This document shows positions 19,530 through 58,707 of a DNA stretch of 64,000 bases, piece by piece; the stretch's first letter is position 1, and the number at the start of each line of letters is the position of its first letter. The notes under the pieces are model-generated. The model was not told where the DNA came from and did not search any database. It saw only the letters and a list, made by a program, of their open reading frames with translations. A program made the translations under genes and the position numbers. Source of the stretch: Lucifera butyrica (GTDB taxonomy: Bacteria; Bacillota; Negativicutes; Sporomusales; UPPP01). The DNA is taken from contig NZ_UPPP01000062.1 in the NCBI RefSeq assembly GCF_900476375.1, forward strand, positions 8,651-72,650, read 5' to 3'.

Positions 19530-19539
19530 AAATTTTATA

Positions 19540-19569
19540 TTGACAATTCCTTACTGGATTTGCTATGAT
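19540..19569 (+). promoter_or_regulatory. sigma-A type promoter of the pyr operon (TTGACA-18-TATGAT)
   Basis: TTGACAattccttactggatttgcTATGAT read directly. Confidence 0.5.
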
Positions 19570-19589
19570 ATTTCTAATAACATATGGCC

Positions 19590-19618
19590 TTTAAACTGGT
19601 CCTGTGAGACTGGTAAGG
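19590..19618 (+). promoter_or_regulatory. PyrR-binding loop (pyrimidine attenuator anti-antiterminator)
   Basis: UUUAAACUGGUCCUGUGAGACUGGUAAGG matches the conserved PyrR box (GUCC.G.GAG.CUG..AAGG) known from Bacillus pyr leaders. Confidence 0.6.
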
Positions 19619-19646
19619 GGATATAATGATGGTTTGTAAGTATTAT

Positions 19647-19685
19647 GCCTTCTTGCATGTGTCACATGCCGGAAGGCTTTTATAT
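19647..19685 (+). terminator. attenuator terminator in the pyrB leader
   Basis: GCCTTCttGCATGTGtCACATGCcgGAAGGC followed by TTTTATATT. Confidence 0.6.
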
Positions 19686-19825
19686 TGTCTGGTAGGTATT
19701 CTACTAAAGTTTCCCAAACTACAAATACTATCCTTTAAGCTGATTCAGCGAGGTCGGCAAGGAGAGTTTATTGCGTATACAGGCCTGCTGTATACGGTGT
19801 TCCAATAGACTAACTTCTTGCCGCA

Positions 19826-29595: not shown

Positions 29596-29600
29596 TCGGT

Positions 29601-40920: not shown

Positions 40921-41040
40921 GCCCTGTGCCTCGAGCCGAAAGAGCGTCAGTGGTCTTTCTTTAATATGTTGTAACAGTCGACGATGGACTATCATATTAT
41001 GTTAATGGGATACCCAAACATTTATAGGAGGTGAAGTCTG

Positions 41041-41457
41041 ATGGGATATTATAATTATGGTATGTCCAGCTGCCAGTCCATGAAATGTATGTCTTGCATG
41101 CATGCCATGAAATGTATGTCCAGTTGCCAGCCTATGTATAGTTGTGAATCGATGTCCAGCTGCCAATCTATGAAATATATGTATAGTTGTCAGTCGATGT
41201 CCAGTTGCCACTCCATGAAATGCATGTCCAGCTGCCATCCCATGTCCAGTTGCCAGTCCATGAAATGTATGTCCAGTTGCCAGCCTATGTCCAGTTGCCA
41301 GTCTATGAAATGTATGTCCAGTTGCCAGCCTATGTACAGTTGCCAGTCTATGAAATGCATGTCCAGCTGTCAGCCTATGTACAGTTGCGAATCGATGTAT
41401 AGTTGCCAGTCCATGAAATGCATGTCCAGCTGTCAATCCATGATGTATGGTCGGTAA
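41041..41457 (+). CDS. Cys/Met-rich low-complexity repeat protein (about 20 tandem hexapeptides of type S-C-Q/H/E-S/P-M-K/Y/S)
   Basis: Strong RBS (TAGGAGGTGA, 6 nt spacer). 138 aa containing 25 Cys and 27 Met. 18-27-nt DNA repeats. Followed by a strong terminator. Confidence 0.7.
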   Translation: MGYYNYGMSSCQSMKCMSCMHAMKCMSSCQPMYSCESMSSCQSMKYMYSCQSMSSCHSMKCMSSCHPMSSCQSMKCMSSCQPMSSCQSMKCMSSCQPMYSCQSMKCMSSCQPMYSCESMYSCQSMKCMSSCQSMMYGR

Positions 41458-41475
41458 TAAAACTAAATAAAACTA

Positions 41476-41522
41476 AAAATCAGCACCAGGTACTGCTGTC
41501 CCGGTGCTGATTTTCTATTTTT
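41476..41522. terminator. bidirectional rho-independent terminator
   Basis: AATCAGCACCaggtactgctgtcccGGTGCTGATT followed by TTCTATTTTT, with an A-run upstream. Confidence 0.8.
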
Positions 41523-41529
41523 ACAGTTA

Positions 41530-41595
41530 CAGAAAGTATAACTTTTCAGTAAAATACTTTCTTCCTGCTTAAAGACCTTTCAGGTCTTTCTTCTT
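41530..41595 (+). repeat. copy A (short form) of a repeated structured element. The 5' block cagaaagtataactttt and the 3' block taaaatactttc...AAAGACC-n5-GGTCTTTCTT are shared with 51161-51266
   Basis: Direct comparison of both loci. Two hairpins: GAAAGTAT..ATACTTTC and AAAGACC..GGTCTTT. Confidence 0.6.
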
Positions 41596-43402
41596 ATCTG
41601 GAGAGATGAATTTGATTGAGGGGATTTTGGGCGTAGCTTTCTTTCAGTTTCCGGTAGGCTTTTTCCGTCGGCAGGTAAGAACAATGTTCTTTATAGGGGC
41701 AGCTATTACAGTTCCAGCAATTTAACTGACCTAAATAGGAAAGGATTGTTGTCTGGTTACCAAATTCACTGATTACACCGTGAACTATATTGGGAGGATA
41801 AAAGGTGCTTAAAATATCTAAAGCTTCTTCATCATTCAATTTTTCGGTCCGGGTAGCAATATAATCTCTTACACATTTATAATAAGTCACTACACTGGGG
41901 TTAGACGGATTGTTGTTTTTGTTATTTTCTAAAAAACGGTTAAATGTTGTATAGGCTTTGGCGAAGTCGCCTTTTTGATAATGGAGTGCGGTAAGGAACA
42001 GGTCTATATTGCTATAGTACCAGGGCAGCGATTCCGGTAAAGACAGATTTAACAAATCGGTAACCGCAGCGACGGGACTATAACCGGTTGTTTCCAAAAA
42101 ACGGATCAATTCTTCCCTTTGGCCGTCGGTTAAGGACGGCAGAGAACGGAGCAGCCGGCGGATTTTATTATATTCCGCGTAGTCGGTTATGGCCTTGCGG
42201 TCGGAGATTTTCTCAATTTCACTCAGTCCCGGAACAATAACATGAAAGGCGGGAAAGCCTAAAAAGGAAACGTCCCGGATAAACGTGCTGTAGCCTTGTC
42301 TGGCCAGCAACTGGATTAAATGCGTCAACAGTTCTTTATTGCTGAAGCCGTGCACGTCTTCCAATTCCTTAAAATCATAACTGTAGTTATGACTGAAAAA
42401 GTTGGCGGGATAAAAGCCGGAGCCGTTAACGAGAATTCCCATCAGGTTTTCTGCATCCAAATCGCTGTGGTAACAAAATTCTCTTACCCCCATCATCCGG
42501 TGAATGTCCTGCCCTTGCAGCAATTCGGTAAGCGTTCGTTCGGCGGCAATTTCAAATATGGGGTGGGCACCGAATTTAACAAAATAATTCTGCGTATCTT
42601 TATTGATATAAATAACGCCAACTACGGGAAAATTTAGTCCCAGTGAGCAATCTTTCAAAATGATTTCACAGTTGCTGCTGGCTTTCAATTTAGCTATCAT
42701 GGAAGCTATGTTAGAATATTTATTAATGAACCAACCAGGGATGTCGGGAGGACATAACCGTTCATTAATAATTTTCTGGTTGGCAAATCGCTCCATAATT
42801 TCCGAAATTCCTTGAACGACGGCTTCTTCCAGGGTATTTCCCGCGCACATGCCGTTTGACATGTACATCTTGGATGCCATTTTAACCGGGATATAGGAAA
42901 TTTGATTGTTTGTCCGGTTTAGGTAAGGGAGCGCAATGAAATCGGCGGGAATCGTTTCGTAGGAAACATCCATCCAGCGTTGCAGGAGTTCTGCTTTATC
43001 TATAGCCGGATCCAGACGGTTCCACTGTTCGCGGAACCAATCCTCTTTACTGCTCAGTACCTCCTCAAAACTCATTTTCTTCTCATCGGGAGCGTAAAAA
43101 AAACCAAGATACTCCAGCGCCTCTTGCCGTAAATCCAGATTGAGCCGGAAAGTAGCCTGGTTTTGCAGGCGCTCCATTAATTCGCCGTAGGCGCTGGCCA
43201 GGGCCAGGTCGGCGGTAGCGCCTTTGCCATTTGTTGATAAACAGGTGTCAACAATTTGAACGGTAACTGAGAAAAAACCTTCTACTGAATTTTTCCAGAC
43301 TGTTTCGATGGTTAAAAGATCCAGATCCTTTAAAATGGTGCGGATCGTATGGATTGTGGTTAACGGCGGCCGGTCTTTATAGTGACTGTCGGATATTGCC
43401 AT
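41594..43402 (-). CDS. ycaO: YcaO-domain protein (E. coli YcaO-like, 602 aa) with C-terminal TPR-like region and a terminal CX2CX2CX5C cysteine cluster
   Basis: TNGKGATADLALASAYGELMERL matches the N-terminal YcaO ATP-binding/active-site block of E. coli YcaO (TNGKGATKKAALASALGEYFERL). C-terminal ...CWNCNSCPYKEHC. Confidence 0.8.
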   Translation of the reverse strand: MAISDSHYKDRPPLTTIHTIRTILKDLDLLTIETVWKNSVEGFFSVTVQIVDTCLSTNGKGATADLALASAYGELMERLQNQATFRLNLDLRQEALEYLGFFYAPDEKKMSFEEVLSSKEDWFREQWNRLDPAIDKAELLQRWMDVSYETIPADFIALPYLNRTNNQISYIPVKMASKMYMSNGMCAGNTLEEAVVQGISEIMERFANQKIINERLCPPDIPGWFINKYSNIASMIAKLKASSNCEIILKDCSLGLNFPVVGVIYINKDTQNYFVKFGAHPIFEIAAERTLTELLQGQDIHRMMGVREFCYHSDLDAENLMGILVNGSGFYPANFFSHNYSYDFKELEDVHGFSNKELLTHLIQLLARQGYSTFIRDVSFLGFPAFHVIVPGLSEIEKISDRKAITDYAEYNKIRRLLRSLPSLTDGQREELIRFLETTGYSPVAAVTDLLNLSLPESLPWYYSNIDLFLTALHYQKGDFAKAYTTFNRFLENNKNNNPSNPSVVTYYKCVRDYIATRTEKLNDEEALDILSTFYPPNIVHGVISEFGNQTTILSYLGQLNCWNCNSCPYKEHCSYLPTEKAYRKLKESYAQNPLNQIHLSR

Positions 43403-43436
43403 ATAAGCACCTCACTGCCAATATTTTAGTGGAGAA

Positions 43437-43775
43437 TTAAATTTCCTGGAGTGATTCATCAACCATTTGATAAACTTTCATCAGCAGTAAACCAAATTGG
43501 TCACTGGCTTTCAGAAACTGCTGCATATCCGGATTCCGGAATAAAGAAGAGAATTTTTGGTTTAATGCGGTCAATTTGTCTTCAAATTCCTGCATGGTCT
43601 GACAGCTTGACTGTAAATCGGCCTGTCTTTTTTGATAGGTTTCCAGTTCTTGTTTTAATTTGCCGTTTTGGTCGATGATTTCCTTGGCATGCTTTAAATC
43701 TATAAATTCCTGGGTATTTTTTATGGCTGTCACAAATTGCCGGATACTTTCCTGATTGATCATGCTAACCTCCAT
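43437..43775 (-). CDS. YlbF/YmcA-family (UPF0342-like) small regulatory protein
   Basis: 112-aa helical protein whose pattern resembles YmcA/YlbF. Weak call. Confidence 0.4.
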   Translation of the reverse strand: MEVSMINQESIRQFVTAIKNTQEFIDLKHAKEIIDQNGKLKQELETYQKRQADLQSSCQTMQEFEDKLTALNQKFSSLFRNPDMQQFLKASDQFGLLLMKVYQMVDESLQEI

Positions 43776-43975
43776 TTCGCCGCTATCGCGACTGACATAA
43801 ATAGTAATCTTCTTGATAATATATTCGCGTAAGCGAGCGGCGGTTACCGGGGCGAAAAACTAAATGCTTTGCCGGAAGGAGACTATTGTTGCTTATGACA
43901 GCAGGATTCTGGAAACAGGATACGAATAAAATTATATAGAAGAACAGGTTGCGGCAGCCGGACAGGAAGGAAAGC

Positions 43976-44494
43976 ATGGGAACGGAGATTCGGAACAATC
44001 TGAACTATTTACGGTATGCGGTATTCCATAAATGGTATGTGTTTTTAGAGGCATGGAAGCTGGGGATCGTCTGGCGGGGGCTGCTGCATGACTGGAGTAA
44101 GTTTTCCTGGCAGGAATGGAGGCCCCGGGTTGCGGCATTAGCCCGGCGTCAGCGGCAAGATATTTATACACCGGAGTTTTTTGCCCCCGGTAATGTGGAG
44201 GATGAATTGGCTTTAAGCTGGCTGCGGCACTATCACCGGAATCCGCATCATTGGCAATGGTGGATTGTTGTGCTGGATGGCGGTCAACAGAAGGTGCTGC
44301 CGATGACGGATGAATACCGCCGGGAAATGCTGGCCGATTGGCGGGCCGTATCGCGAATGCCGGACCGAATGGCAATGGTGCCCTGGTATTTGCTGAATAG
44401 GGAAAAGATAATTTTGCATCCGGAAACCCGGCAGTGGGTTGAAAAACAGTTGGGATTATCAGAAACGGGAGGAGATTGCCATGACGGCATATAA
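43976..44494 (+). CDS. hypothetical protein (aromatic/His-rich, no recognised domain), first gene of the que operon
   Basis: ORF with a Trp/His-rich block ([12 protein letters not shown]). Its 3' end overlaps queC by 14 nt, so it is co-transcribed. Confidence 0.5.
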
Positions 44495-45140
44495 AGATCA
44501 GGGCGCGCTGGTAGTATTTAGCGGTGGGCAAGACAGTACGACCTGTTTATTTTGGGCAAGGAAGCAATTCAACCGGGTGGAAGCCGTGACGTTTGATTAT
44601 AATCAGCGGCACCGGCGTGAAATTGATTGTGCCCGGGAGATTGCCCGGGAACTTTCCCTGGAGCATACCATACTCGATTTAGGGTTGTTGAACCAATTGG
44701 CGCCCAATGCGTTAACCCGCAGCGAAATTACCGTTAAGGCCGGTGAGAGCGGACAGCTTCCCAATACGTTTGTGGATGGGCGCAATTTACTGTTTCTTTC
44801 TTTTACCGCCGTGGTGGCGAAGCAGCGAAACATCCGCCATATTGTGACCGGCGTGTGTGAAACGGATTTCAGCGGCTACCCGGATTGCCGGGATGTATTT
44901 ATCAAATCGTTGAATGTTACGTTGAACCTGGCCATGGACTACCAGTTTGTCATTCATACCCCTTTAATGTGGATTAATAAAATGGAAACCTGGGCGATGG
45001 CCGACGAATTGGGAGTGCTGGATTTTGTCCGGCAAAAGACATTGACCTGTTATAACGGGATTATCGGTGACGGCTGCGGTGAGTGTCCGGCCTGCAAACT
45101 GAGAAATGCCGGATTGAAGGAGTATCTATGCCGGAAGTAA
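44481..45140 (+). CDS. queC: 7-cyano-7-deazaguanine synthase
   Basis: [14 protein letters not shown]-loop and C-terminal zinc ligands CYNG...CGECPAC. ATG behind GGGAGGAG. Confidence 0.9.
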
Positions 45141-45721
45141 AATATCCTGTTGTTCAGATTTTTACCAGCATTCAGGGGGAAGGCCTGCATATGGGACTGC
45201 CCGTCACCTTTATTCGTCTGGCCGGCTGCAACCTAAGGTGCACCTGGTGCGATACGCCTCAGGCATTTGACAGCAGTCAGGCCAGGTGGCAGACGGCAGA
45301 GGAGATTGTGGCGCAGGCGATTCCCACCCGGCTGGTTGTTATTACCGGCGGTGAACCGACCTTACACGATTTGGGCAGCCTGGTCGAAGCGCTAAAAAAG
45401 CGGCATAAATATGTCGCCATTGAAACCAATGGAACCAATGAGATTCCCGCGGCCTGGGGAATTGACTGGATCACCGCCTCTCCCAAACCGGCAAGCGGCT
45501 ATATTTTACGCTGTGTGCCCAATGAACTGAAATATGTGGTCGATGATGCATTCAACCTGGAGGTCATTGCCTGGCAAGCCGTTCCGAAAGGAAATATTCT
45601 GCTGCAGGTGGAAAGCGGCCGGCCGGAATCGGCGGCGAAAGCATACCGTCTCGTCCTGGAGCGGCCGGATTGGGAGTTGCGTCTGGGGATTCAACTGCAC
45701 AAAGTGATTGCTGTGGAATGA
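45128..45721 (+). CDS. queE: 7-carboxy-7-deazaguanine synthase (radical SAM)
   Basis: FTSIQGEG...[14 protein letters not shown] cluster motif. Confidence 0.9.
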
Positions 45722-45846
45722 CAAGAAGGACTGATTTCTTATTGCTGTTGGCCGGAATGCTGTATTTGCTAACGCTAACCGGGAAAATTAGATTATTTTG
45801 TTTGCCATTTTTGCCAAAAATGTAATAAATATTTATTTTACCCTCT

Positions 45847-45874
45847 AGACAAAAACAGTATGTGTGCTATAATA
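45847..45874 (+). promoter_or_regulatory. candidate glnA promoter (TAGACA-16-TATAAT)
   Basis: tagacaaaaacagtatgtgtgctataat. Confidence 0.35.
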
Positions 45875-45904
45875 AATCCATACTAAATATTTCAAGTCGG
45901 CAAT

Positions 45905-45955
45905 GACGCTGGCATATTGCAGATTTTGTCTGCATTATGCGGCGTCTTTTTATTT
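45905..45955 (+). terminator. hairpin plus U-tract in the glnA leader (candidate attenuator or terminator of the que operon)
   Basis: GACGCtggcatatTGCAGAttttgTCTGCAttatGCGGCGTC followed by TTTTTATTTT, about 25 nt before the glnA RBS. Confidence 0.5.
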
Positions 45956-45979
45956 TATCTTAACTTTAGGAGGTAGAAA

Positions 45980-47410
45980 ATGAGTATGACACCTAAAGAT
46001 GTAGTGGCGATGGCAAAAGAAAAGGGAGCTAAGCTGGTTGATTACAAATTTATCGATCTTCCTGGTATTTGGCAGCACAAAACGGTTCCGATCAGTGAAT
46101 TTGACGAAAGTGTGTTTGCTGAGGGGCATGGTTTTGACGGATCCAGTATCCGGGGCTTTCAGGGCATTGAAGAAAGTGATATGCTTCTAATTCCTGATCC
46201 GAATACGGCAATTGTTGACCCATTTATGAAAGAACCTACGTTAAGTCTAATTTGTAATGTTGTTTCTCCTGACATGGAAAACTATAGCCGGGATGCGCGC
46301 TATGTGGCACAAAAAGCGGAAGCTTACCTTAATGCTACAGGAATTGCGGATGCCAGTTATTGGGGACCGGAAGCCGAATTTTTCATTTTTGATGATGTTC
46401 GTTATGATTTGAGTCAAAATGCTGCTTATTATTCGGTAGATTCTGAAGAAGCAATTTGGAATACCGGCAAGAATGAAGGCCCCAATCTTGGTTATAAAAT
46501 TCGTAATAAAGAAGGATATCTGCCGGTTCCTCCCGCCGATGCAACCCATGATATCCGTTCCGAGATGACTTTGGTGCTGGAAAGCCTGGGAATTCCTGTT
46601 GAAGCGCATCATCATGAGGTAGCTACCGGCGGCCAGGGCGAAATTGGCATGCGCTTTGATACCTTGACCAATATGGCCGATAAAACGATGACTTTCAAGT
46701 ATGTAGTAAAAAATGTTGCCAGAAGGTATGGTAAGCTGGCAACTTTTATGCCGAAACCACTTTTTGGTGATAACGGCAGCGGTATGCACGTACATCAAAG
46801 CCTGTGGCTGGGCGGTCAGCCGTTGTTCTTTGATGAGAAAAATTATGCTCAACTCAGTCAAACGGCCTTGTACTACATAGGCGGTTTGCTAAAACATGCT
46901 TCGGCTTTGCTGGCTCTTACCAGTCCGACTACGAATTCATACAAACGACTGGTACCGGGGTATGAAGCACCGGTAAATATCGCGTTTTCAGCTCGTAACC
47001 GGAGTGCTGCTGTCCGGATTCCGATGTATTCCAAGAATCCCAAAACAAAACGGATCGAATTCCGTCCCCCCGATGCTTCTTCTAACCCGTATTTGGCATT
47101 AGCCGCCATGTTGATGGCCGGGATCGATGGGATTAAGAACAAAATTGACCCGGTTGCGGAAGGCTTCGGACCGATGCAGGTCAACATTTATGAACTGCCG
47201 CCGGAAGAAAAGGCTAAAGTCAAGAGCGTACCCGGTTCTTTGGAAGGAGCCTTAAAGGCGTTGGAAGAGGATCATGCTTTCTTATTGGAAGGCGGGGTAT
47301 TTACCAAGGATCTTCTGGAGACCTGGATCAGCTATAAATATGCTAATGAAGTGGATTCAGTCCGGCTGCGTCCGCATCCAATGGAATTCAAGCTGTATTT
47401 CGATATCTAA
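45980..47410 (+). CDS. glnA: glutamine synthetase type I
   Basis: [32 protein letters not shown] and [12 protein letters not shown] motifs. No adenylylation-site context. Confidence 0.95.
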
Positions 47411-47562
47411 TCCGCTGGTTTTACCGCGGACGCCGGGAAATCCGGCGTCTGTGTTTTCCACGCTAAATTTTCCTCAGGGATAATTAAATGCATCTCTTTG
47501 GCAGGATAATTTTAGTATATGTGGAATAGACTATGAATTAAATAATTTTATGAGGTGAGAGA

Positions 47563-49473
47563 ATGCTTAAAGATTTGCTGTACGTGATTCCCACAGGAAA
47601 ATATAGCAAACAAGAACTGGTTGATTTATTGAGAAAGCATCCCGAAATTAAATTCGTCTCTTTGGTGGGAATTGACCTCGCCGGTAATGATACGGACGAA
47701 AAAGTTCCTATATCATTGTTTCTGAAAGACGTTGATGATTTCTTTAGTGGCAGCGCGGTGCAGACCGACGGCTCATCCGTTGTGTTAACCGGTGTTGCCA
47801 CATTAAATAATGCCAAAGTCGATATGCTGGCCGACCCTGGTGTGAATTGGTTTGTTGATTACAATTTCGAGCATATTGATGAAGAAACCAAAAAACCGAT
47901 TGGTACCTTGCGTATTCCGGCTTTCCTTGTCCATAACGGCGTACGGGTTGACTCCCGGTCGATCATGGCGCAATCGCTGGAATATATTAAAGGGGAACTG
48001 CTTAATTTATTCAAAAAGCATCCTCAGGTAGCCGGTTTGGAGCACATCGGCGCCGATGAAGTGGAAGATATTATTTTTACTTCAGCGACGGAACTGGAAT
48101 TTTGGGTGAAGACCCCGGCGGAAAAAGCCCGGGTGGAAGAACTGTCGGCAACCCAGGTAATGCAGGAAAACTATTGGGCCCGTACTCGCGGTGAGGCACG
48201 CACGGCCATGGAACAAGCCGTCATGATGCTGGAGCAGTATGGTTTGCATCCGGAAATGGGCCACAAAGAGGTCGGCGGGGTAAAAGCCAGGATCAGCGAG
48301 TCCGGTGGACTGACCCATGTAATGGAACAGATGGAAATTGACTGGCGTTTTGCCAGCGGGGTACAGACGGCGGACAATGAATTACAGGCCCGGATCCTTG
48401 TTAAGGAAGTGTTCCGCGCCAATGGACTGGAAGTAACCTTTCAGGCCAAGCCGATCATTGGTGTTGCCGGCAATGGGGAACATACCCATGTTGGCATGGC
48501 TGCCAAATTGAAATCGGGTAAAATTGTGAACCTGTTTGCGCCGAAAGATATGAAAGCCGATTTCCTGAGTGCGGTCGGTTATGGCTCTATTATGGGGCTG
48601 CTCAAGCACTATGAAGTGGTAAATCCCTTTATTTCTTCCACGAATGATTCTTTGAACCGTTTAAAACCCGGTTTCGAAGCGCCGGTATGCATCGTTACTT
48701 CTCTGGGCCACAATCCGGAAGTTCCTTCCCGTAACCGGACCATCCTGGCAGGACTTGTCCGTGATATTAATAACCCGCTGGCAACCCGCTTTGAAGTTCG
48801 CTCGCCGAATCCGTTCACGAACACCTATATTGCCTTGACGACAATTTATCTTTCCATGCTTGACGGCATTAAAGCGGCTGTTGCTTCCGGCAAGACGACG
48901 AAGGAACTGGAGAAGGAATTGTCGAAAGAGCCGGGTGTTCCCAGTTTCTATCTCGAAACCGACCGGGCCTACCGCAGTGAACATGATGTGTTTGAAGACT
49001 ACACCGCGGAAGAACGGAACCGTATGTTCAGCAAACCGCCTGCTACAGTGTGGGAAAATATGCAGGGGCTGGCCAAATATCCGCAGAAAGTGGAAGCGAT
49101 CAAAGCCGGCAATGTTTTCTCGCAGGAACTGATTGATGCCTTTGTTGCCGGAGCCTTGTTGCGCTGGAAGATAGAACTGTTGAATCGTATTATTCCCGAA
49201 AATGCGGATATCGTAAAAGCTTGTTCCTGTCTGCATACCCCGGAAGCCGGCAGTGACCTGGACGAAAAAAATTGGCAGGCTATTATGAATCTCCGGGTTT
49301 ACCTGGCGAAAGATTCTACGGCGAAGAAGAGCCTGTTCACCCGGATCGGGGAAGCGGTTAACAGTGGCGATTATAATACTGCTTCCGCTTTGCAAGTGGA
49401 AATGAGTGATAAGCTTGAAGAATTAAAAAGTGCTTATGTGCAATATAAAAGAAACATGATTCATGGTTGTTAA
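47563..49473 (+). CDS. glutamine synthetase family protein, type III-like (636 aa)
   Basis: N-terminal beta-grasp with QTDGSS. Catalytic domain motifs NGEHTHVGMA, NRLKPGFEAPV, SLGHNPEVPSRNRTI parallel the GS active-site blocks. Long C-terminal extension. Confidence 0.6.
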   Translation: MLKDLLYVIPTGKYSKQELVDLLRKHPEIKFVSLVGIDLAGNDTDEKVPISLFLKDVDDFFSGSAVQTDGSSVVLTGVATLNNAKVDMLADPGVNWFVDYNFEHIDEETKKPIGTLRIPAFLVHNGVRVDSRSIMAQSLEYIKGELLNLFKKHPQVAGLEHIGADEVEDIIFTSATELEFWVKTPAEKARVEELSATQVMQENYWARTRGEARTAMEQAVMMLEQYGLHPEMGHKEVGGVKARISESGGLTHVMEQMEIDWRFASGVQTADNELQARILVKEVFRANGLEVTFQAKPIIGVAGNGEHTHVGMAAKLKSGKIVNLFAPKDMKADFLSAVGYGSIMGLLKHYEVVNPFISSTNDSLNRLKPGFEAPVCIVTSLGHNPEVPSRNRTILAGLVRDINNPLATRFEVRSPNPFTNTYIALTTIYLSMLDGIKAAVASGKTTKELEKELSKEPGVPSFYLETDRAYRSEHDVFEDYTAEERNRMFSKPPATVWENMQGLAKYPQKVEAIKAGNVFSQELIDAFVAGALLRWKIELLNRIIPENADIVKACSCLHTPEAGSDLDEKNWQAIMNLRVYLAKDSTAKKSLFTRIGEAVNSGDYNTASALQVEMSDKLEELKSAYVQYKRNMIHGC

Positions 49474-49548
49474 CAGGCCGACTCCCTCAGCTACGTTGAG
49501 GGAGTTTTGACTAAATGGTGAAGAATAGCTCATATGAGGTGCGTTGAT

Positions 49549-49983
49549 ATGGATTCCATTGACTTGCGGATTTTAGATATTTTGCAGGCTGACGGACGCA
49601 TTACCATGAAAGAATTGGGACAGCGGGTAGGATTAACCAGTCCGGCCACCATTGAACGGGTGAAAAAACTGGAAGAAAACGGCGTGATTAGCGGCTATAA
49701 AGCGGTAATTAATATACAAAAGGCCGGTCTTGCCGTGCGGGCGTTTGTTATGCTAATGCTAACCAGTATAAATAAATCCGAATTCCGGGAATATATCCGT
49801 TCCCAGGAAAATGTACTGGAATGCCACCGGATTACAGGCGAAATGGGATATCTTATTGATTTAGCAACAGCGGATCTGGCTGGTATGGAGAAAATTATCG
49901 ACGAAATGTCGCAGTTTGGTCAGGTACGTCCGTTCATTGTCTTATCTTCGCCAATAGAGCACAAGCCGGTGTTGCTGCCTTGA
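49549..49983 (+). CDS. Lrp/AsnC family transcriptional regulator
   Basis: IDLRILDILQADGRITMKELGQRVGLTSPATIERVKKLEENGVI HTH plus RAM domain. Confidence 0.85.
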   Translation: MDSIDLRILDILQADGRITMKELGQRVGLTSPATIERVKKLEENGVISGYKAVINIQKAGLAVRAFVMLMLTSINKSEFREYIRSQENVLECHRITGEMGYLIDLATADLAGMEKIIDEMSQFGQVRPFIVLSSPIEHKPVLLP

Positions 49984-50048
49984 AACATTCTGCCGCTCAA
50001 TGGACTTGTCAGAACTGCAGTTGTATAGTATAACTAATGCTCTAAAGG

Positions 50049-50123
50049 TGCGGAAGTAGCTCAGCGGTAGACCCTCGCCTTGCCAAGGCGAGGGTCGCGA
50101 GTTCGAATCTTGCTGTCCGCTCC
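50049..50123 (+). tRNA. tRNA-Gly (GCC), divergent copy with one mismatch each in the D-stem and acceptor stem
   Basis: Same anticodon arm and T-loop as the other Gly tRNAs, but D-stem GCTC/GACC and acceptor pair A6-G67 are mismatched. Confidence 0.6.
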
Positions 50124-50267
50124 AATGTGTAACAAATAAAACCCGGTGCATTGCGCACCGGGTTTTATTTGTGTAAAAAGCAGGAAGGATGGGCGATGCC
50201 AAAAAAGGTTTTCTCTTTTTGGCGGCGAATAAAATATAAAATTATTATTTGTTGGGAGGGAAAGTTA

Positions 50268-50780
50268 ATGGAAAAATTGTTTAGCGATTTGGAAGGCTTG
50301 CGAGTCGCCCTGGAAATCGAAGTCCGCGGTAAGGAGTTTTACCGGCAGGCTTATCAGAAGTCTAAAAATGAGGCGCAGACGAGTTTATTTCTTGCTTTAA
50401 TGAACGAGGAGGTTGCTCACTACGAAGCGTTTTCCCGAATTTATGACATTCTAAAACAAAACAGAGATGCCGCGGCGGATGAGTATTTGTTCGATCCGGA
50501 AGTTTCCCGTTATTTGACTGCCCTCACCGAAGCGTATATTTTTCCCCCGCCGGAAAAAGCAGCCGCTGCCATAGATGAATTAAGCGGTATAACGGCTGTT
50601 TTAAATTTAGCTATGCAGGCGGAAAAAGATTCGATCTTACTTTATGATGAATTAGCACGAAATGCCAAATTTGAGGCTGCAAAAAAAGTTTTTAGTCTGT
50701 TAAAAGTAGAAGAACAAAAACATGTAATAAAAATAAGAGAAATGATGAATGCCTGGTTATATGAATCCTCTGCCACGTAG
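50268..50780 (+). CDS. rubrerythrin-like ferritin-fold (diiron) protein
   Basis: EIEVRGKEFY...EEVAHYEAF...EKDSILLYDELARNA, the paired E..H helices of the ferritin-like diiron fold. Start trimmed to the ATG behind GGGAGGGAAAG. Confidence 0.55.
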   Translation: MEKLFSDLEGLRVALEIEVRGKEFYRQAYQKSKNEAQTSLFLALMNEEVAHYEAFSRIYDILKQNRDAAADEYLFDPEVSRYLTALTEAYIFPPPEKAAAAIDELSGITAVLNLAMQAEKDSILLYDELARNAKFEAAKKVFSLLKVEEQKHVIKIREMMNAWLYESSAT

Positions 50781-50940
50781 TTTTCATCTTACAAGATGCT
50801 TTTCACCGGCAAGGGGCAGATAATATTCTCCGGAAAGACCCGCTATCAGCAATATTTAATGGTTGCAGGTATTGAAAATGTTGAGAAAATTTGTACAATA
50901 TTAATTAATAGGACTAGTATATATGATAGGGGGAAGATTT

Positions 50941-51072
50941 ATGGCCAAGTCGATAGGTAAGCGGGCTTATCACAAACAGGATATGAAAAAGTTGAACCGG
51001 ACGGCTTTAACAATTGGTGGAATTACGGCTGCCATATTGCTGCTTCTCATGGTCGTTTCTTTTTTGCGATAA
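50941..51072 (+). CDS. small membrane protein (43 aa; not in the ORF track because under 60 aa)
   Basis: ATG behind GGGGGAAG RBS. C-terminal TM helix (LTIGGITAAILLLLMVVSFL). Own promoter (TTGAAA-16-TgTACAAT at about 50870-50900) and terminators downstream. Confidence 0.4.
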   Translation: MAKSIGKRAYHKQDMKKLNRTALTIGGITAAILLLLMVVSFLR

Positions 51073-51130
51073 GCGCCTGGTTTAATGTAGTATCTACATC
51101 TTTTTAAAACAGGACCGATGAAAATAATTT

Positions 51131-51153
51131 GCGCCCGGCAGGGCGCTTTTTTT
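51131..51153 (+). terminator. rho-independent terminator
   Basis: GCGCCCggcaGGGCGC followed by TTTTTTT. Confidence 0.8.
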
Positions 51154-51160
51154 GTGGGAT

Positions 51161-51266
51161 CAGAAAGTATAACTTTTCGGGTTATTTTTATAATAAAACA
51201 TTCTTCTTAAGAAAGCCGAAAAGTAAAATACTTTCTTTCCATTTAAAGACCCATTGGGTCTTTCTT
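51161..51266 (+). repeat. copy B (long form) of the repeated structured element, in the 5' UTR of the small sulfite reductase gene
   Basis: Same 5' and 3' blocks as 41530-41595 with a 43-nt insertion that extends the first stem (GAAAGUAUAACUUUUCGG...CCGAAAAGUAAAAUACUUUC). Second hairpin AAAGACCcauugGGUCUUU. Confidence 0.6.
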
Positions 51267-51358
51267 AGGTTCGAAAAGATATCTAAAATATCAAGAGGAA
51301 TTTTGGCTTTCTTTGTCTAAAAATAATATTATTCTTAGCTAATATGGAGGAATTATAA

Positions 51359-52030
51359 ATGGAGATGAAAACAGATTTATTGGAAAAAGGAGCTGTCTTA
51401 CAACGGGACAAAGAAACGTATGCGATTGCCCCCCACATTCCCGGCGGCATTATTACAGATCCGAATACATTGCGCAGATTGGCCGATGTTGCCGAAAAAT
51501 TCGGCGCTCAAGCCATTAAAGTGACATCGGCACAACGAATCGCTTTGGTGGGCATTACGCCGGATAAGATCGATGCTGCCTGGGAGGAACTGGGAATGGA
51601 TAAAGGGGCGGCGATTGGCCTCTGTGTGCGCAGTATCAAGATTTGTCCGGCTACTCATTTTTGTAAACGGGCGCAACAGGACGCCGTTAGCTTGGGCTTG
51701 GCCCTGGATGAGCGATATCATGGAATGAAATTGCCCTCGAAATTCAAAATGGGTGTAAGTGGCTGTATGAACTCCTGTGCCGAACCGGCGGTCAAAGATC
51801 TGGGCATTGTGGGTACTCCCAAGGGTTTCAATGTCTTGATTGGCGGGAATGCCGGGATTAAGCCCCGGCTGGCTAATCTTTTGGCCGAGCACGTGATGCC
51901 GGAACAAGTGCTGCCTCTAGTGGAGAAAATTATCACGTATTATAGGGCAAATGCCCGTAACTATGAACGAATGGGGATGATGCTCGACCGGCTGGGCTTT
52001 GAAAAAGTAAAACAGGATTTACTTGGCTAG
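51359..52030 (+). CDS. small monomeric sulfite reductase-like protein (nitrite/sulfite reductase ferredoxin half-domain plus siroheme/4Fe-4S domain; alSiR-type)
   Basis: 223 aa. Cys ligands in CPATHFC ... SGCMNSC, matching the NiR/SiR cluster-binding arrangement. Size matches the 23-kDa assimilatory-type small sulfite reductases. Confidence 0.65.
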   Translation: MEMKTDLLEKGAVLQRDKETYAIAPHIPGGIITDPNTLRRLADVAEKFGAQAIKVTSAQRIALVGITPDKIDAAWEELGMDKGAAIGLCVRSIKICPATHFCKRAQQDAVSLGLALDERYHGMKLPSKFKMGVSGCMNSCAEPAVKDLGIVGTPKGFNVLIGGNAGIKPRLANLLAEHVMPEQVLPLVEKIITYYRANARNYERMGMMLDRLGFEKVKQDLLG

Positions 52031-52149
52031 CCGTCCGGGGATGCAGCATGTTTTTAGTCCTGCCCGATAAAATACAAAGGTACATATGGAAATATTGGCA
52101 GTTTCAGGGTATACTGTCAATAAGGAAATGTTCGGCAGGAGGCGATAGG

Positions 52150-53373
52150 ATGGAGGACAAATGGGTCATCGAGCTCATCGAGCAGCTTGCCCAATTTAAA
52201 GAAGGTGAAATCGGGATAAGCCGCCTGGCTTTCAGCCAGGCCGACCGGCAGGCCCGGGAACATATTCAAGGACGGATGAAGGACGCCGGACTGGATGTGC
52301 GTATTGATGCCGCGGGTAATATTATTGGCCGTTTGGCGGGAAAAGATCCAGAGGCCCCTGCAGTCGCAACCGGCTCTCATTTGGATACGGTTCCCCATGG
52401 CGGAAAATACGATGGTGTAGTAGGAATCGCCGGCGGATTGCTGGCGATTCAGCGCTTGCAAGCCCGGGGGCCATTGACCCATCCGGTTGAGCTCGTTGTT
52501 TTTATTGCGGAAGAAGCCAGCCGGTTTGGTTATTCGAATCTGGGAAGTAAGGCGATGAACGGTACAGCCAATATACATGCCTGGAGTCGGGCCCAGGATC
52601 ATAGCGGTATTACTCTGAAACAGGCTTTTTTAAAACAGGGTCTTGACTTAAGCGCCGTGACCGCAGCCGCCCGGAAAAAGGAAGAGCTCAAGGGATTTGT
52701 TGAATTGCATATTGAACAGAGCCGCATATTGGAAAAGACGGGAAGTAAAATTGGAATCGTGGAATGGGTTGCGGCTTCGACCCGGTTAAAGATTACTGTA
52801 GAGGGCACTGCCGCGCATTCGGGAGCGACACCGATGGATGAACGTCAGGACGCGCTGGTCAGTGCGTCGATGATTGTTCTGGCAATCCAGGAAATATCCT
52901 TGGAACAGTCGACCTATGGGACTGTGGGCACAGTGGGCGCGCAAATAGTGCATCCCGGTGTTATGAATGCTGTTCCCGGCATGGTGGAAATGTGGGTGGA
53001 TATTCGCGGCGTAGATCATGACAGCATCATTCAAACCCTGCAGGATATTAAAGATGCAATCAGCACCATTGCCGAAGAACAGCACACTCCCGTGGCTATG
53101 GAAGTGTTATCCTCGGAAAAGCCGGTGTTGATGGATGAGCATATGGTGGAAACGATCGAAAATGTGTGCCGCAGCCGGGGGGTTTCATACCGGCTCATGA
53201 ATAGCGGTGCAGGGCATGATGCTATGTATATGGCCCATTTGACGCCTACCGGTATGATTTTAATTCCCTGCAAAAACGGGCTTAGCCATCATCCGGAAGA
53301 ATCCGTGGCAACAGAAGACATTATGACCGGCATTGACGTTTTGACGGAAATGTTGTATCGGCTGGCAAAGTAG
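52150..53373 (+). CDS. M20-family amidohydrolase (allantoate amidohydrolase / N-carbamoyl-L-amino-acid hydrolase type)
   Basis: Metal ligands GSHLDTV ... AEEASRFG ... HS..GH-type blocks. Start trimmed to the ATG behind GCAGGAGG. Confidence 0.7.
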   Translation: MEDKWVIELIEQLAQFKEGEIGISRLAFSQADRQAREHIQGRMKDAGLDVRIDAAGNIIGRLAGKDPEAPAVATGSHLDTVPHGGKYDGVVGIAGGLLAIQRLQARGPLTHPVELVVFIAEEASRFGYSNLGSKAMNGTANIHAWSRAQDHSGITLKQAFLKQGLDLSAVTAAARKKEELKGFVELHIEQSRILEKTGSKIGIVEWVAASTRLKITVEGTAAHSGATPMDERQDALVSASMIVLAIQEISLEQSTYGTVGTVGAQIVHPGVMNAVPGMVEMWVDIRGVDHDSIIQTLQDIKDAISTIAEEQHTPVAMEVLSSEKPVLMDEHMVETIENVCRSRGVSYRLMNSGAGHDAMYMAHLTPTGMILIPCKNGLSHHPEESVATEDIMTGIDVLTEMLYRLAK

Positions 53374-53382
53374 GTGGTATCC

Positions 53383-54090
53383 GTGCAGGTTCATGTTTGT
53401 TTTACTCCCGGCGAATATCCGGGATGCGGAGAAAGGCATATTGCCGTTGTGATTGATGTGTTTAGGGCTACCAGTTCTATGGCAGCGGCTATGTTTCATG
53501 GCTGTAAGATGATTTGCCCCGTGCGGACGGTGGAAGAAGCGCTGCAATTGCGACAGAACGAATATCCGGCGGCGCTTCTGGCCGGGGAGAGAAAGGGACT
53601 GCTTATTCCCGGCTTTGATCTGGGCAATTCTCCGCTAGAATATACTGCCGCTGTTGTCGACGGCAGGGAAATCATTATGACAACAACGAATGGAACGCAG
53701 GCGCTGAATCATGTTTCGCAAGCTGCAACCGTATATACCGCCGCGTTCGTAAACGCGGCGGCCGTGTGCGAACGCTTGCGAAATGCGGCAACCGATGTGA
53801 TGGTCCTGTGTTCCGGTACGGAAGGAAGATTTGCGTTGGAGGATGCGCTGTGCGCCGGGCTGATTGCCGGGCGGCTGGCTGAAAATGCGGTTCTAAGCGA
53901 TACGGCAGTAGCGGCGTTGGCAATGTACCGGGATTTTTGCTGCTCCGGCAACATGATACCCCGGGTTGCGGCCTCGTCCCACGCCAGCTATTTGCGGCAA
54001 ATCGGCTATTCTCAGGATGTAGCCTATTGTTTGCAACACGATATCTATCCGGTGGTACCGGTGTTTACTCAAGGAAAGGTCACCCTATGA
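53383..54090 (+). CDS. 2-phosphosulfolactate phosphatase (ComB) family protein
   Basis: VVIDVFRATSSMAAAM block typical of the ComB family. About 235 aa. Confidence 0.6.
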   Translation: MQVHVCFTPGEYPGCGERHIAVVIDVFRATSSMAAAMFHGCKMICPVRTVEEALQLRQNEYPAALLAGERKGLLIPGFDLGNSPLEYTAAVVDGREIIMTTTNGTQALNHVSQAATVYTAAFVNAAAVCERLRNAATDVMVLCSGTEGRFALEDALCAGLIAGRLAENAVLSDTAVAALAMYRDFCCSGNMIPRVAASSHASYLRQIGYSQDVAYCLQHDIYPVVPVFTQGKVTL

Positions 54091-54094
54091 TTAA

Positions 54095-54122
54095 GAAAGA
54101 CCGCTTAGGACGGTCTTTTAGT
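54095..54122 (+). terminator. rho-independent terminator
   Basis: AAAGACCGcttaggaCGGTCTTTT. Confidence 0.7.
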
Positions 54123-54284
54123 AATTGGAAATTGGATTTTTGATTTTGGAAAAAGAGACTGCGATTCCATCTTTTCCTAATTGCCAATTACCGAAAAACC
54201 GTGCCAGCGGTTTTTCTTTAATTTTCCGTTTTTATTATGTAAACTTTATGGTACAATGGGTACTATCCTTGCGAAAGGGGAGAC

Positions 54285-55040: not shown

Positions 55041-55050
55041 GTAGACCGCG

Positions 55051-56277
55051 CTAGCGGTCTTTCCCATCCAGTTCCTGCAAAATGTTTTGTTTTGCCTGGG
55101 ACAAGGCGATATCCACCCGGTCTGTTTGAAGACCGCCTCCTTGGGCGGAGCGGGCATTGCCGCCGCCTTTGCCGCCGATTAACGGCAAAACGGATTTGAG
55201 ATGGGTTCCCATATTCACCGCTATTTCATCGGAACAGGCAAAAACAAGATGACACTTGTTCTGTTCCGGATTGATACCGCCTACCAGGGCGATTGTGTGG
55301 GGAAACGATGCCAATTGCTTAGCCAGTTCGGCTGTTTCCGACGGTGTGGCCGTCGTGAGTATATGGGAGATAAGATGAATTCCGGCTGCGGCGGGCGACT
55401 GCTGCAATAAATTCGCTGCCAGAATCCGGGTGAATTCCTCTTTGACAGCGGCAAGCTGTTTCATTGTCTCTTCCAGTTTGGCCGCTTGTTTTTCTATAGC
55501 TTGTACGAGGCCGTTAACTGGAGTGGACAAGAGGCTGGACAATTGCTGAACCAAAAGGTTTTTTTGCTGAAAATCCCCTAGGGCGCGTTGACCACAGACA
55601 AAATCAACACGGATGGCGTTATTTTTTCGTTCCCAGGAGCGAATTTTGATAAGTCCGATTTCGCCTGTGGCCTGGACGTGAGTACCGCCGCATGGGCAGC
55701 AATCCAGGTTTTCAATGTCTACCAGACGGATGCGGAAATATTCCTTGGCTATCTGTTTCCGCAGAGGAAATTGCTCCAGCCTGTCCGGTGTAATCTCCTG
55801 ACTGCGTACCGGTTTATTAGCATAAATCATTTCGTTGGCCAGTTTTTCAGCCGCGGCAATCTCTTCCGCCGTAATTTTATCCAAAGCCAAATCAATTTGA
55901 GTGGATTCGGTTCCCAAATGAAAACCAATATTTTCCGCCTCATATAGTTGCTGAAATACGGCCGATAAAACGTGTTCGCCGCTATGCTGCTGCATGTGGT
56001 CAAAGCGGCGGTCCCAGTTGATTTGGCCCTTAAGGGTTCCCTGACCGGGGCATTCCGGCATAATATGGACGATTTCATCTTGCTCCTGCCGTACCGCCGT
56101 AACAGGAATCCGGTTGATAAAGCCGGTGTCGCATGGCTGGCCGCCGCCTTCCGGATAGAATGCAGTCCGGTCCAGTACGACCTTCCATTGCCCGTCGGGC
56201 ATGGGAGTGCATTTTATTACGGCAGCCGAAAATTCATGTACATAAGAGTCCTGATAATAAAGTTTTTCAGTATACAT
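55051..56277 (-). CDS. AlaX-L type alanyl-tRNA editing protein (AlaRS editing domain plus DHHA1)
   Basis: HSGEHVL ... CCPCGGTHV zinc/editing motifs and C-terminal GGKGGG(N)ARSAQGGG DHHA1 motif. Confidence 0.8.
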   Translation of the reverse strand: MYTEKLYYQDSYVHEFSAAVIKCTPMPDGQWKVVLDRTAFYPEGGGQPCDTGFINRIPVTAVRQEQDEIVHIMPECPGQGTLKGQINWDRRFDHMQQHSGEHVLSAVFQQLYEAENIGFHLGTESTQIDLALDKITAEEIAAAEKLANEMIYANKPVRSQEITPDRLEQFPLRKQIAKEYFRIRLVDIENLDCCPCGGTHVQATGEIGLIKIRSWERKNNAIRVDFVCGQRALGDFQQKNLLVQQLSSLLSTPVNGLVQAIEKQAAKLEETMKQLAAVKEEFTRILAANLLQQSPAAAGIHLISHILTTATPSETAELAKQLASFPHTIALVGGINPEQNKCHLVFACSDEIAVNMGTHLKSVLPLIGGKGGGNARSAQGGGLQTDRVDIALSQAKQNILQELDGKDR

Positions 56278-56439: not shown

Positions 56440-56580
56440 ATAGTAAAATTAAAATGCCGAATCCATATAGGTACGGGGGAACCGCTAGAAAAACAGGGGT
56501 AAATCCGCATTGCGGAGGGGTTGTTTCTCTTTTCTCTCTTTCGCCCTCACCCGACAGCTAACCTCGGAGGCACTCAAAAG
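56440..56580 (+). promoter_or_regulatory. c-di-AMP riboswitch (ydaO/kimA class)
   Basis: GCCGAAUCC...GGUACGGGGGAACC ... GGGGUAAAUCCGC...GGAGGGG ... CCCGACAGCUAACCUCGGAGGC, the pseudo-two-fold ydaO signature, directly upstream of a cell-wall 3D-domain gene (typical regulon member). Confidence 0.6.
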
Positions 56581-56593
56581 AGAGGTGATACAA

Positions 56594-57175
56594 TTGAAAA
56601 AGGTTTTTTTATTGGCGGCATGTATCTTTTTGCTGTCCATGAGCGCCACGGTTTACGCAGCTGCGGCGGACAAGCCGGTTCAATTTGGTATGCGCGGTGA
56701 TGAAGTAAAAACCATTCAGAAACTATTGGCCGATTCCGGTTTTTTTGCCGGCGAGATTGATGGTGTATTCGGCAATTTGACATTGCGGGCGGTGCAAAGG
56801 TTTCAGCAGGAGAACGGACTGCCTCCCGACGGTACCGTTGGGAAAGCTACGTTGGCCTATTTAGAGCGAACCGCCCAGACCCAACCATCCCGGTATAGCC
56901 GGGCCCTGACAATGACGGCGTCAGCCTACACGGCTCAGGATGCCGGCACCGGCGCTTTTACCTATGGAGGTCATCCCCTGCGCAAAGGCTTGATCGCGGT
57001 TGACCCGTCTGTGATCCCGCTTGGAACACGCCTTTATATTCCTGGTTATGGCTATGGAATTGCGGATGATATCGGTTCCTCCATAACCGGTGCACGGATT
57101 GATCTGGCATTTGAAAACCGCGGGGAAGCCTTGCAGTTTGGTGTCCAGAGAGTAACCGTATATGTATTGGACTAA
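56594..57175 (+). CDS. secreted peptidoglycan-binding (PG_binding_1) plus 3D-domain protein
   Basis: TTG start behind AGAGGTGA. Signal peptide. GDEVKTIQKLLADSGFFAGEIDGVFGNLTLRAVQRFQ PG-binding repeat. C-terminal 3D domain (AVDPSVIPLGTRL...DDIGSSITGARIDLAF). Confidence 0.8.
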   Translation: MKKVFLLAACIFLLSMSATVYAAAADKPVQFGMRGDEVKTIQKLLADSGFFAGEIDGVFGNLTLRAVQRFQQENGLPPDGTVGKATLAYLERTAQTQPSRYSRALTMTASAYTAQDAGTGAFTYGGHPLRKGLIAVDPSVIPLGTRLYIPGYGYGIADDIGSSITGARIDLAFENRGEALQFGVQRVTVYVLD

Positions 57176-57723: not shown

Positions 57724-57823
57724 GAATACTACCCGCAGTGGTTGAGCCGGCGGGAGGCCAACAAATAATTTTCCCGCATATGGCCTGAGGCTGTGGATCC
57801 CGTTCTCCCGGACAGTGCGCCCT

Positions 57824-57985
57824 AGTGCTCTGTAAACCCTAACTCTATAGTGTTCTTGCGAGATATTTTCCGCCCTGCTTTGTTGTCGTCGGCTTACATA
57901 TTCTCGATATGCGCGCCTCCTCCGCCGTGCAGGACAAAAAATCTTTCGCAATTCATCCTACAGATTTAAGGTTAACAGAGCACTG
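57824..57985. repeat. inverted-repeat (MITE/REP-like) element, long form: arms AGTGCTCTGTAAACCCTAA / TTAAGGTTAACAGAGCACT
   Basis: Arms are near-perfect reverse complements. Related copy at 58505-58574. Confidence 0.6.
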
Positions 57986-58053
57986 GTATATAAATAGAAC
58001 GCAAGCATTATACTAGGGTTAGGCCGAAATACTGTTTAAGGGAGGGCGGGGAA

Positions 58054-58506
58054 TTGGATATGATTCCGGGTCATCTGATGCCATTAGTGCTGGCTTTGAT
58101 ATCAGGAATACTAATGGCCGTGCAGGGTACGTTTAATGCGGCATTGAGCAAGGTTATCGGTTTATTGGAGGCCACCTTTGTTGTACATATCACCGGCACG
58201 CTGCTTCTGCTGCTGGTGCTGTTTCTGCTGAAAATGGGTAAAGGCAATTTGCTTTCCTTGCCGCAGGCACCCTGGTATGCGTATTTGGGTGGTATTGTCG
58301 GTGTATTTATTATTTATCTTGTTGCTGCGAGTATTCCCACTGTAGGTGTTGCGAATGCAACAACAGCCATTATTGTGGGACAAGTATTGACTGCCCTGCT
58401 GATCGATCATTTTGGCGGATTCGGCATGGAAAAAATGGCTTTTGGTTTTAATGATTTAGCGGGTTTGGTACTCCTTACCATTGGGGCCAAATTGCTGCTG
58501 AGTTAG
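58054..58506 (+). CDS. small integral membrane protein (DUF606/YdcZ-like, DMT-superfamily half-transporter)
   Basis: 150 aa with four or five TM helices and a Gly-rich C-terminus. Confidence 0.6.
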   Translation: MDMIPGHLMPLVLALISGILMAVQGTFNAALSKVIGLLEATFVVHITGTLLLLLVLFLLKMGKGNLLSLPQAPWYAYLGGIVGVFIIYLVAASIPTVGVANATTAIIVGQVLTALLIDHFGGFGMEKMAFGFNDLAGLVLLTIGAKLLLS

Positions 58507-58574
58507 TGGTCTGTAAACCCTAATTCTATAGCCTCCCGCAATTCATCCTATAGCTTTAGAGTTTACAGACCACT
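58505..58574. repeat. inverted-repeat element, short form: arms AGTGGTCTGTAAACCCTAA / TTAGAGTTTACAGACCACT
   Basis: Starts at the stop codon of the upstream gene. Shares the arm-adjacent blocks CTATAG and CAATTCATCCTA with 57824-57985. Confidence 0.6.
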
Positions 58575-58707
58575 GGCTGCCCGGCGGCGAGGATCGTCAT
58601 TTTTTCCAAAAATGGGTTAACAAACCAGGAAGAATAAGGTATACTTAATAACATATTGTATTTATTTATTCGTTTTATGCTAAAAATCAAATATAAGGAG
58701 GAAAAGC

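Follow-up and report, generated by a model that had tools for sequence, protein, structure and literature searches.

Two copies of a two-hairpin element beside intrinsic terminators of Lucifera butyrica: a possible small extragenic palindromic repeat

We analyzed a 64-kb stretch of DNA (here called the window) from Lucifera butyrica. The draft genome of strain ALE was assembled from MiSeq 2x250 reads into 134 contigs totaling 4.67 Mb (PMC6315149). The GlnA, NIR_SIR, and YcaO proteins encoded in the window were 100% identical to the Lucifera butyrica proteins LUCI_1533, LUCI_1522, and their neighbors. Two intergenic regions of the window carry one copy each, A and B, of a short element predicted to fold into two hairpins. 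The features at the two loci are as follows.

41476-41522, both strands: bidirectional strong intrinsic terminator, between a Cys-rich ORF (+) and ycaO (-)
41530-41595, + strand: copy A, the short form (66 bases; 94.8 bits in the covariance-model scan)
41594-43402, - strand: ycaO, whose stop codon (41594-41596) abuts the 3' end of copy A
51131-51153, + strand: intrinsic terminator (GCGCCCGGCAGGGCGC followed by T7) that ends a small membrane ORF (50923-51072)
51161-51266, + strand: copy B, the long form (106 bases; the core of copy A plus 43 extra nt)

Each copy begins 7 to 8 nt past its strong terminator (8 nt for copy B). Terminator scans agreed with the preliminary description of this DNA, which had placed both copies directly 3' of the terminators at 41476-41522 and 51131-51153; its wording that the element "always" follows a terminator generalizes from two cases. 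Copy A lies between two convergent genes, the Cys-rich ORF (+) and ycaO (-), and is upstream of no gene. Since the terminator at 41476-41522 works both ways, copy A forms the 3' untranslated region (UTR) of ycaO on the minus strand. Copy B follows the terminator of the membrane ORF (43 to 49 amino acids) and precedes an operon encoding NIR_SIR, an M20 peptidase, and ComB. The sole promoter-like site for this operon, TTGGCT-18-TATTAT at 51303-51332, is predicted downstream of copy B, which would place the transcription start near 51339. Copy A has a weak, non-conserved promoter-like sequence, GTTACA-18-TAAAAT, and nothing equivalent was found inside or before copy B. The contexts of A (ycaO 3' UTR) and B (upstream of the operon promoter) differ, so that the element does not occupy the same place relative to a transcript at the two loci.

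The Cys-rich ORF next to copy A (41041-41457, +) would encode 138 amino acids. It has a strong ribosome-binding site. The predicted protein matches no Pfam family and has a very high content of Cys, Met, and Ser. The ORF contains repeats (e.g., MSSCQSMKC and MYSCQSM) with a DNA period of 45 nt and about 80% identity between units. It is located just after a CitMHS/ArsB-type transporter gene, converges on the YcaO gene, and is not among the called genes of the independent Logan assembly described below, neither whole nor as a predicted partial product. The protein may bind metal or sulfur, or it may be a substrate-like peptide.

Pairwise alignment of copies A and B gave, from 5' to 3', 18 exact nucleotides, a 43-nt stretch present in B only, 16 exact nucleotides, a 5-nt linker (CCTGC in A and TCCAT in B), 9 exact nucleotides, a 5-nt loop (TTTCA in A and CATTG in B), and 10 exact nucleotides. 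The 63-nt core common to both consists of the exact 18-nt 5' block and a 45-nt 3' block. Between the two cores, 53 positions are identical, and all 8 substitutions are confined to two 5-nt patches. The edges of the homology are sharp, with unrelated DNA flanking it on either side. In the window, the 17-mer CAGAAAGTATAACTTTT occurs only twice, at 41530 and 51161 (0.14 occurrences expected), and TTAAAGACC-N5-GGTCTTTCTT likewise only at 41569 and 51243 (0.01 expected). These pattern counts and the alignment bore out the shared 5' and 3' blocks reported earlier, as well as the claim that the stem of hairpin 2 is kept while its loop differs. The parts of the two copies are as follows.

41531-41562, + strand: copy A, hairpin 1 (H1), with outer stem AGAAAGTAT / ATACTTTCT and a short tip
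41563-41570, + strand: copy A, linker
41571-41589, + strand: copy A, hairpin 2 (H2), AAAGACCT-TTC-AGGTCTTT, followed by CTT
43 extra nt, + strand: copy B, extension of H1 with inner stem ACTTTTCGG / CCGAAAAGT
51245-51263, + strand: copy B, H2, AAAGACCC-ATT-GGGTCTTT

The arms of H1, which match at 41532-41561 in copy A, are separated by 14 nt there and by 57 nt in copy B (14 + 43, from the indel). The additional 43 nt do lengthen H1, as had been described. The earlier reading of this as a sign of a structured RNA did not hold, as a deletion of the tip in A fits equally well. Such a deletion in A would have taken away the tip together with most of the inner stem's 3' arm. Because any tip deletion can account for the short H1, the difference in length is no evidence of selection on the structure.

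H2 is also found outside the full copies. A stretch of 13 kb (40939-54118) contains four instances of the module AAAGACC-loop-GGTCTTTCTT, with loops of 5, 5, 6, and 9 nt. The 10-mer GGTCTTTCTT itself occurs four times in the window, against 0.11 expected, and all four occurrences are inside these modules. The two modules that stand alone are as follows.

40939-40961, + strand: stand-alone H2, imperfect (AAAGAGC-GTCAGT-GGTCTTTCTT), with one arm mismatched
54093-54118, - strand: stand-alone H2 (17 bits) with exact AAAGACC/GGTCTTT arms (54096-54118) and a 9-nt loop

The first of these begins 19 nt past the stop codon of the CitMHS transporter gene and was absent from the preliminary description. 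The second starts 3 nt past the comB stop codon, and its GGTCTTTCTT flank (CTT) reads on the minus strand. After comB, the stop codon and this H2 are followed by a long, unrelated hairpin and then by the operon terminator (54193-54216), an order that mirrors the stop codon, H2, H1, and terminator at ycaO. Of the two recurrences of the AAAGACC/GGTCTTT stem proposed before, that at 54096-54118 was found with exact arms, while 55043-55062 contains only AGACC/GGTCT. In a terminator scan the H2 of copy A passed; those of copy B and of 54096 failed.

Searches for the element outside the two loci were negative. A covariance model of the 63-nt core detected only A and B in the 64-kb window and nothing at the corresponding loci of relatives. 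Another 22 kb or so of L. butyrica DNA from outside the window contained no copy; of this, 20.7 kb was scanned with the model and patterns and about 1.7 kb, upstream of the window, was partly read. At gathering thresholds, Rfam models matched only a c-di-AMP riboswitch and tRNAs in the whole window; at the two loci themselves, with E values up to 10, there were only sub-threshold chance matches. There was no Intron_gpII match (E up to 10) that would suggest the 3' remnant (domain V/VI) of a terminator-targeting class C group II intron, and H1 varies in length by 43 nt. Blastn against plasmids and phages did not return the element. A scan of 185,579 species-representative genomes with the pattern ATACTTTC-N5-20-AAAGACC-N3-8-GGTCTTT produced 30 matches in unrelated taxa, all of them ordinary AAAAAGACC...GGTCTTTTT terminators. 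No Lucifera locus was among them, so that either this genome is outside the collection or the additional copies proposed below are wrong. The 3 matches in a pattern scan of JGI metagenomes and the 7 matches to the 5' block in IMG/VR viral contigs were all in coding DNA. A 63-aa ORF spans copy B, and a protein-level search for spurious ORFs over other copies gave 0 matches.

Among the other RNA features of the window, the c-di-AMP riboswitch (ydaO/yuaA type, 79 bits) is at 56445-56587 (+), upstream of the ORF at 56510-57175. The tRNA-Gly(GCC) at 50050-50124 (+) is 92% identical to two tRNA copies, at 29600 and 37288, that are identical to each other. It scores much lower with the tRNA model (47.9 bits compared to 70.8 bits), stands alone between AsnC-type regulator and rubrerythrin-like genes, and may be a diverged or decaying extra copy.

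One locus selected by a search pattern was in Lutispora thermophila (NZ_FQZS01000004.1), where two copies of a palindrome, GGAAAGTATAAATTTT(T)AATTTATACTTTCC, are located at 291-370 and 7859-7940, 7.5 kb apart. Each directly follows the T-run of a terminator and is followed by AAAAGCATTTCAAsAAAGGCTTC; one of them comes after a 5S rRNA and tRNA operon. Its stem and H1 have GAAAGTATAA/ATACTTTC in common. We considered the palindrome as a relative of the element and rejected it as probably a coincidence, as the locus was picked by the search pattern and the likeness is limited to a stem of 8 to 10 nt.

The element was also absent from syntenic DNA of relatives. Thermosinus carboxydivorans has the same order of small ORF, NIR_SIR (85% identity), M20, ComB, and 3D-domain genes. 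The gap before its NIR_SIR gene is 109 nt, compared to 286 nt in L. butyrica, and holds only a terminator and a promoter/ribosome-binding region. In a metagenome-assembled genome (MAG) with 87% GlnA identity, the small ORF and its terminator are present and the element is absent, and a Selenomonadales MAG has only a plain terminator in the region 3' of ycaO. Absence from the gaps of relatives and from the scans of large collections indicates that the element is lineage specific and not a conserved leader. The element was placed into, or has spread between, terminator-adjacent "dead" intergenic DNA in the L. butyrica lineage. As to gene content, the MAG with 87% GlnA identity (17800-19800, compared with 50151-52030 of the window) lacks NIR_SIR between the small membrane ORF and M20 and has a DUF4337 gene and extra small ORFs at the same junction, where Thermosinus keeps NIR_SIR. 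From these gene orders, the junction of the small membrane ORF and M20 is a hotspot of gene gain and loss.

An independent Logan assembly of the same strain (k = 31, run ERR2625866) breaks inside both copies. Contig ERR2625866_134 ends at 41551, ERR2625866_336 ends at 51174, and ERR2625866_190 starts at 51238; the 63-nt gap between the latter two spans the interior of H1 in copy B. We used the rule that a Logan contig runs exactly 30 nt into an exact repeat, which we checked at three places. At the tRNA-Gly (50049-50124), the contig begins at 50081, with 50111 as the first unique base. The second check was the 3' end of a tRNA at the start of contig_205. The third was a different inverted-repeat family, whose start at 57823-57825 is overrun by a contig that stops at 57854. 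Applied to copy B, the rule points to another locus identical to 51145-51175 and 51237-51267, with the linker and loop of B. The stretch of exact sharing derived in this way, 51145-51267, has its right edge 1 nt from the edge of the A/B homology, and its left edge is further left than the start of that homology. Applied to copy A, the rule points to another locus that shares 41550-41580, including the linker of A, and then differs at the fourth base of the H2 loop. Breakpoints predicted by hand for a simple deletion, an inversion between the arms of H1, or a mixture of long and short alleles miss 51174 and 51238, and we rejected these explanations. Judging from the contig ends, the family probably has at least four members, at least two of them beyond A and B. 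The Logan breaks at the element may instead be due to hairpin-related loss of coverage.

The repeat family of the third check has two copies (57823-57986 and 58504-58576) that flank the ORF at 58054-58506. Its 27-nt arms (AGTGSTCTGTAAACCCTAAYTCTATAG and its complement) are 85 to 89% complementary, and its tips are 107 and 16 nt long. That a Logan contig ends where the repeat starts suggests more copies in the genome. The variable-length tip in this family too hints that such elements are general in the L. butyrica genome.

Three identities had been proposed for the element: a small repetitive extragenic sequence of the REP or MITE type, an sRNA family, and a cis-regulatory leader. The sharp edges, the absence in relatives, the recurrence of H2, and the assembly breakpoints favor the first. 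We consider it about an even chance that A and B are copies of a small non-coding composite palindromic repeat, REP/BIME-like or hairpin-MITE-like, that is restricted to Lucifera butyrica. Counting against this is that only two full copies were read in the 64-kb window. The identical stems could instead result from a very recent duplication.

The H2 modules and the breakpoints also bear on an explanation without mobility, in which hairpins at the 3' ends of genes were copied within 13 kb among terminator regions, by duplication, template switching, or gene conversion, and no wider family exists. All four H2 modules and both full copies are indeed within 40939-54118, and neither the window's first 40 kb nor the 20.7 kb of the other L. 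butyrica contig yielded any. The genome-collection scan had no Lucifera match, and terminators shaped like AAAAAGACC...GGTCTTTTT are common across many Firmicutes. We nevertheless judge this explanation unlikely. The Logan breaks at both copies fit exact repeats elsewhere, and the edge at 51267 is within 1 nt of the homology edge. Moreover, it is hard to see what substrate would allow gene conversion, with edges this sharp, between two unrelated intergenic regions separated by 9.6 kb.

The folding of the two copies was examined in relation to the composite repeat and to an RNA family. Two hairpins were predicted for each copy (z = -4.2 for A and -6.1 for B), and the reverse strands fold about equally well (z = -3.6 and -4.8, respectively). 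Of 20 core base pairs, 19 are invariant. The sole compensatory pair is the closing pair of H2, which changes from U-A to C-G; with two sequences only, this is not significant, as 233 of 500 shuffles reached the same value. A covarying basal helix, formed by pairing of the variable linker with the variable left flank, was rejected because shuffled or random flanks were equal in 8 to 75% of trials. The single-stranded linker, where the seed of an sRNA would be expected, is the least conserved part of the element. The clustering of the substitutions in two patches would fit conservation of the REP type, with stems kept and loops free, as well as it fits an RNA. The preliminary description had regarded these patterns as the behavior expected of a structured RNA. 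In light of the invariant pairs, the non-significant covariation, the folding of both strands, the poorly conserved linker, and the finding that no promoter is conserved ahead of both copies on either strand, that argument is weak.

The form of this idea that fares best concerns the minus strand, on which each copy with its adjacent terminator forms a predicted three-hairpin RNA that ends in the terminator (z = -8.7 for A and -6.3 for B). The copies would then belong to an sRNA or 3'-UTR-derived RNA family, with the order H2, H1, and terminator, whose stems act via a bound protein. Copy A is certainly transcribed as the ycaO 3' UTR, and the order of stop codon, H2, long hairpin, and terminator recurs after comB. 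Copy B, however, has no minus-strand gene upstream, and the U-tail of its terminator is poor on that strand. The element also has no Rfam match and is not conserved in relatives. Together with the missing conserved promoter, the variable linker, and the non-significant covariation, this makes a minus-strand RNA family quite unlikely.

The conserved half-sites with variable centers look like operators, and the predicted NIR_SIR promoter is found shortly after copy B. DNA sites for a regulator that coordinates the Cys-rich ORF, ycaO, and the NIR_SIR/M20/ComB operon are nonetheless highly improbable, given that copy A is downstream of both neighboring genes, that the orthologous Thermosinus promoter region lacks the site, and that the half-site spacing is not fixed. 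Spacings of 14 and 57 nt in H1 and loops of 5, 5, 6, and 9 nt in H2 fit recognition of a folded hairpin and not a double-stranded operator.

That copy B acts as a leader or attenuator of the NIR_SIR operon and copy A is its paralogue is barely conceivable, even though copy B is 5' of the operon and the H2 and CU-rich tail of copy A resemble a weak terminator: the upstream terminator and copy B are too close together to fit a promoter between them, the predicted promoter is downstream, the syntenic leader in Thermosinus, whose NIR_SIR protein is 85% identical, lacks the element, and copy A precedes no gene. The earlier proposal of a cis-regulatory leader was dropped on these grounds.

We compared the composite repeat with known repeat systems. 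Like the REP/BIME sequences of Enterobacteria and Pseudomonas, it consists of short imperfect intergenic palindromes at sites between stop codon and terminator or between convergent genes; stems are conserved, loops and linkers vary, and two hairpin units combine. The role of REP/BIME sequences as RNA is protection of 3' ends. Unlike them, the element has no 5' tetranucleotide of the GTAG type (the feet of its hairpins read CAGAAAG and TTAAAGACC), its copy number is apparently low, its H1 is much longer than a REP, and its host belongs to the Negativicutes. PATEs, which are hairpin-only non-autonomous derivatives of IS200/IS605, likewise have a hairpin near each end, no convincing terminal inverted repeats, and no target duplication, and their recognition as folded single strands would tolerate a variable H1 tip. 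The left-end and right-end hairpins of IS608-type elements are alike. Here, by contrast, the two hairpins are dissimilar and the bases to the left of the A/B homology differ (TTAC in A and GATC in B), and the element is only loosely PATE-like. By the breakpoint rule, however, the true left edge of B would be at 51145, further left than these bases.

RUP and BOX of Streptococcus pneumoniae, bcr1 of the Bacillus cereus group, and the Correia elements of Neisseria resemble the element in being non-coding, 60 to 160 nt long, and restricted to a species or genus, in forming stable folds near gene ends, and in having long and short forms that differ by internal deletions. What sets those families apart is their copy number, in the tens to hundreds, and their clear terminal inverted repeats and/or target duplications; neither feature is shown here. 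The only candidate terminal inverted repeat at the edges of the A/B homology is 6 nt long (AGAAAG / CTTTCT), and the flanks show no target-site duplication (...CAGTTA|C and T|CTTATC for A; ...GGGAT|C and T|AGGTTC for B). H2 is similar to ordinary intrinsic terminators, as its A-tract, GACC stem, and T-rich tail are those of many Firmicute terminators; it differs from them in that a separate strong terminator is always beside it and in that four copies of H2 have the same 17-nt sequence. As the hallmarks of REPs (GTAG) and of MITEs (target duplication) are missing, we file the element under the general class of small extragenic palindromic repeats and under no named family.

In our working model of the composite repeat, the unit consists of H1, a long hairpin with a tip of variable length, and H2, a short terminator-like hairpin that also occurs alone. 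It would spread as DNA, mobilized in trans by a transposase that recognizes folded hairpins, or alternatively by recombination or gene conversion between terminator regions. The identical stems would mean that the folded duplex is the recognized form or that the copies are young. As for the host, we infer no more than an accessory hairpin that serves at the 3' end or as an insulator. Copy A and the H2 after comB both lie past a stop codon and ahead of the real terminator, where they would impede 3'-to-5' exonucleases or contribute to termination, and copy B would insulate the NIR_SIR promoter from read-through. A bolder version, which we regard as doubtful but worth stating, is an undescribed Lucifera-specific family of hairpin-only mobile elements that insert beside intrinsic terminators, with H1 and H2 moving or recombining separately as portable structures of 3' UTRs and terminator regions.

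The composite repeat is a fairly ordinary type of bacterial feature and has no bearing on any long-standing open question. The analysis removes a false lead, as it rules out a conserved riboswitch or leader role for the element at the sulfite-reductase-like operon. If confirmed, it would be the first REP/MITE-like repeat family described in Lucifera (Negativicutes). It would then serve as a marker for assembly breaks and strain typing and may provide a handle on a hairpin-recognizing transposase that targets terminators.
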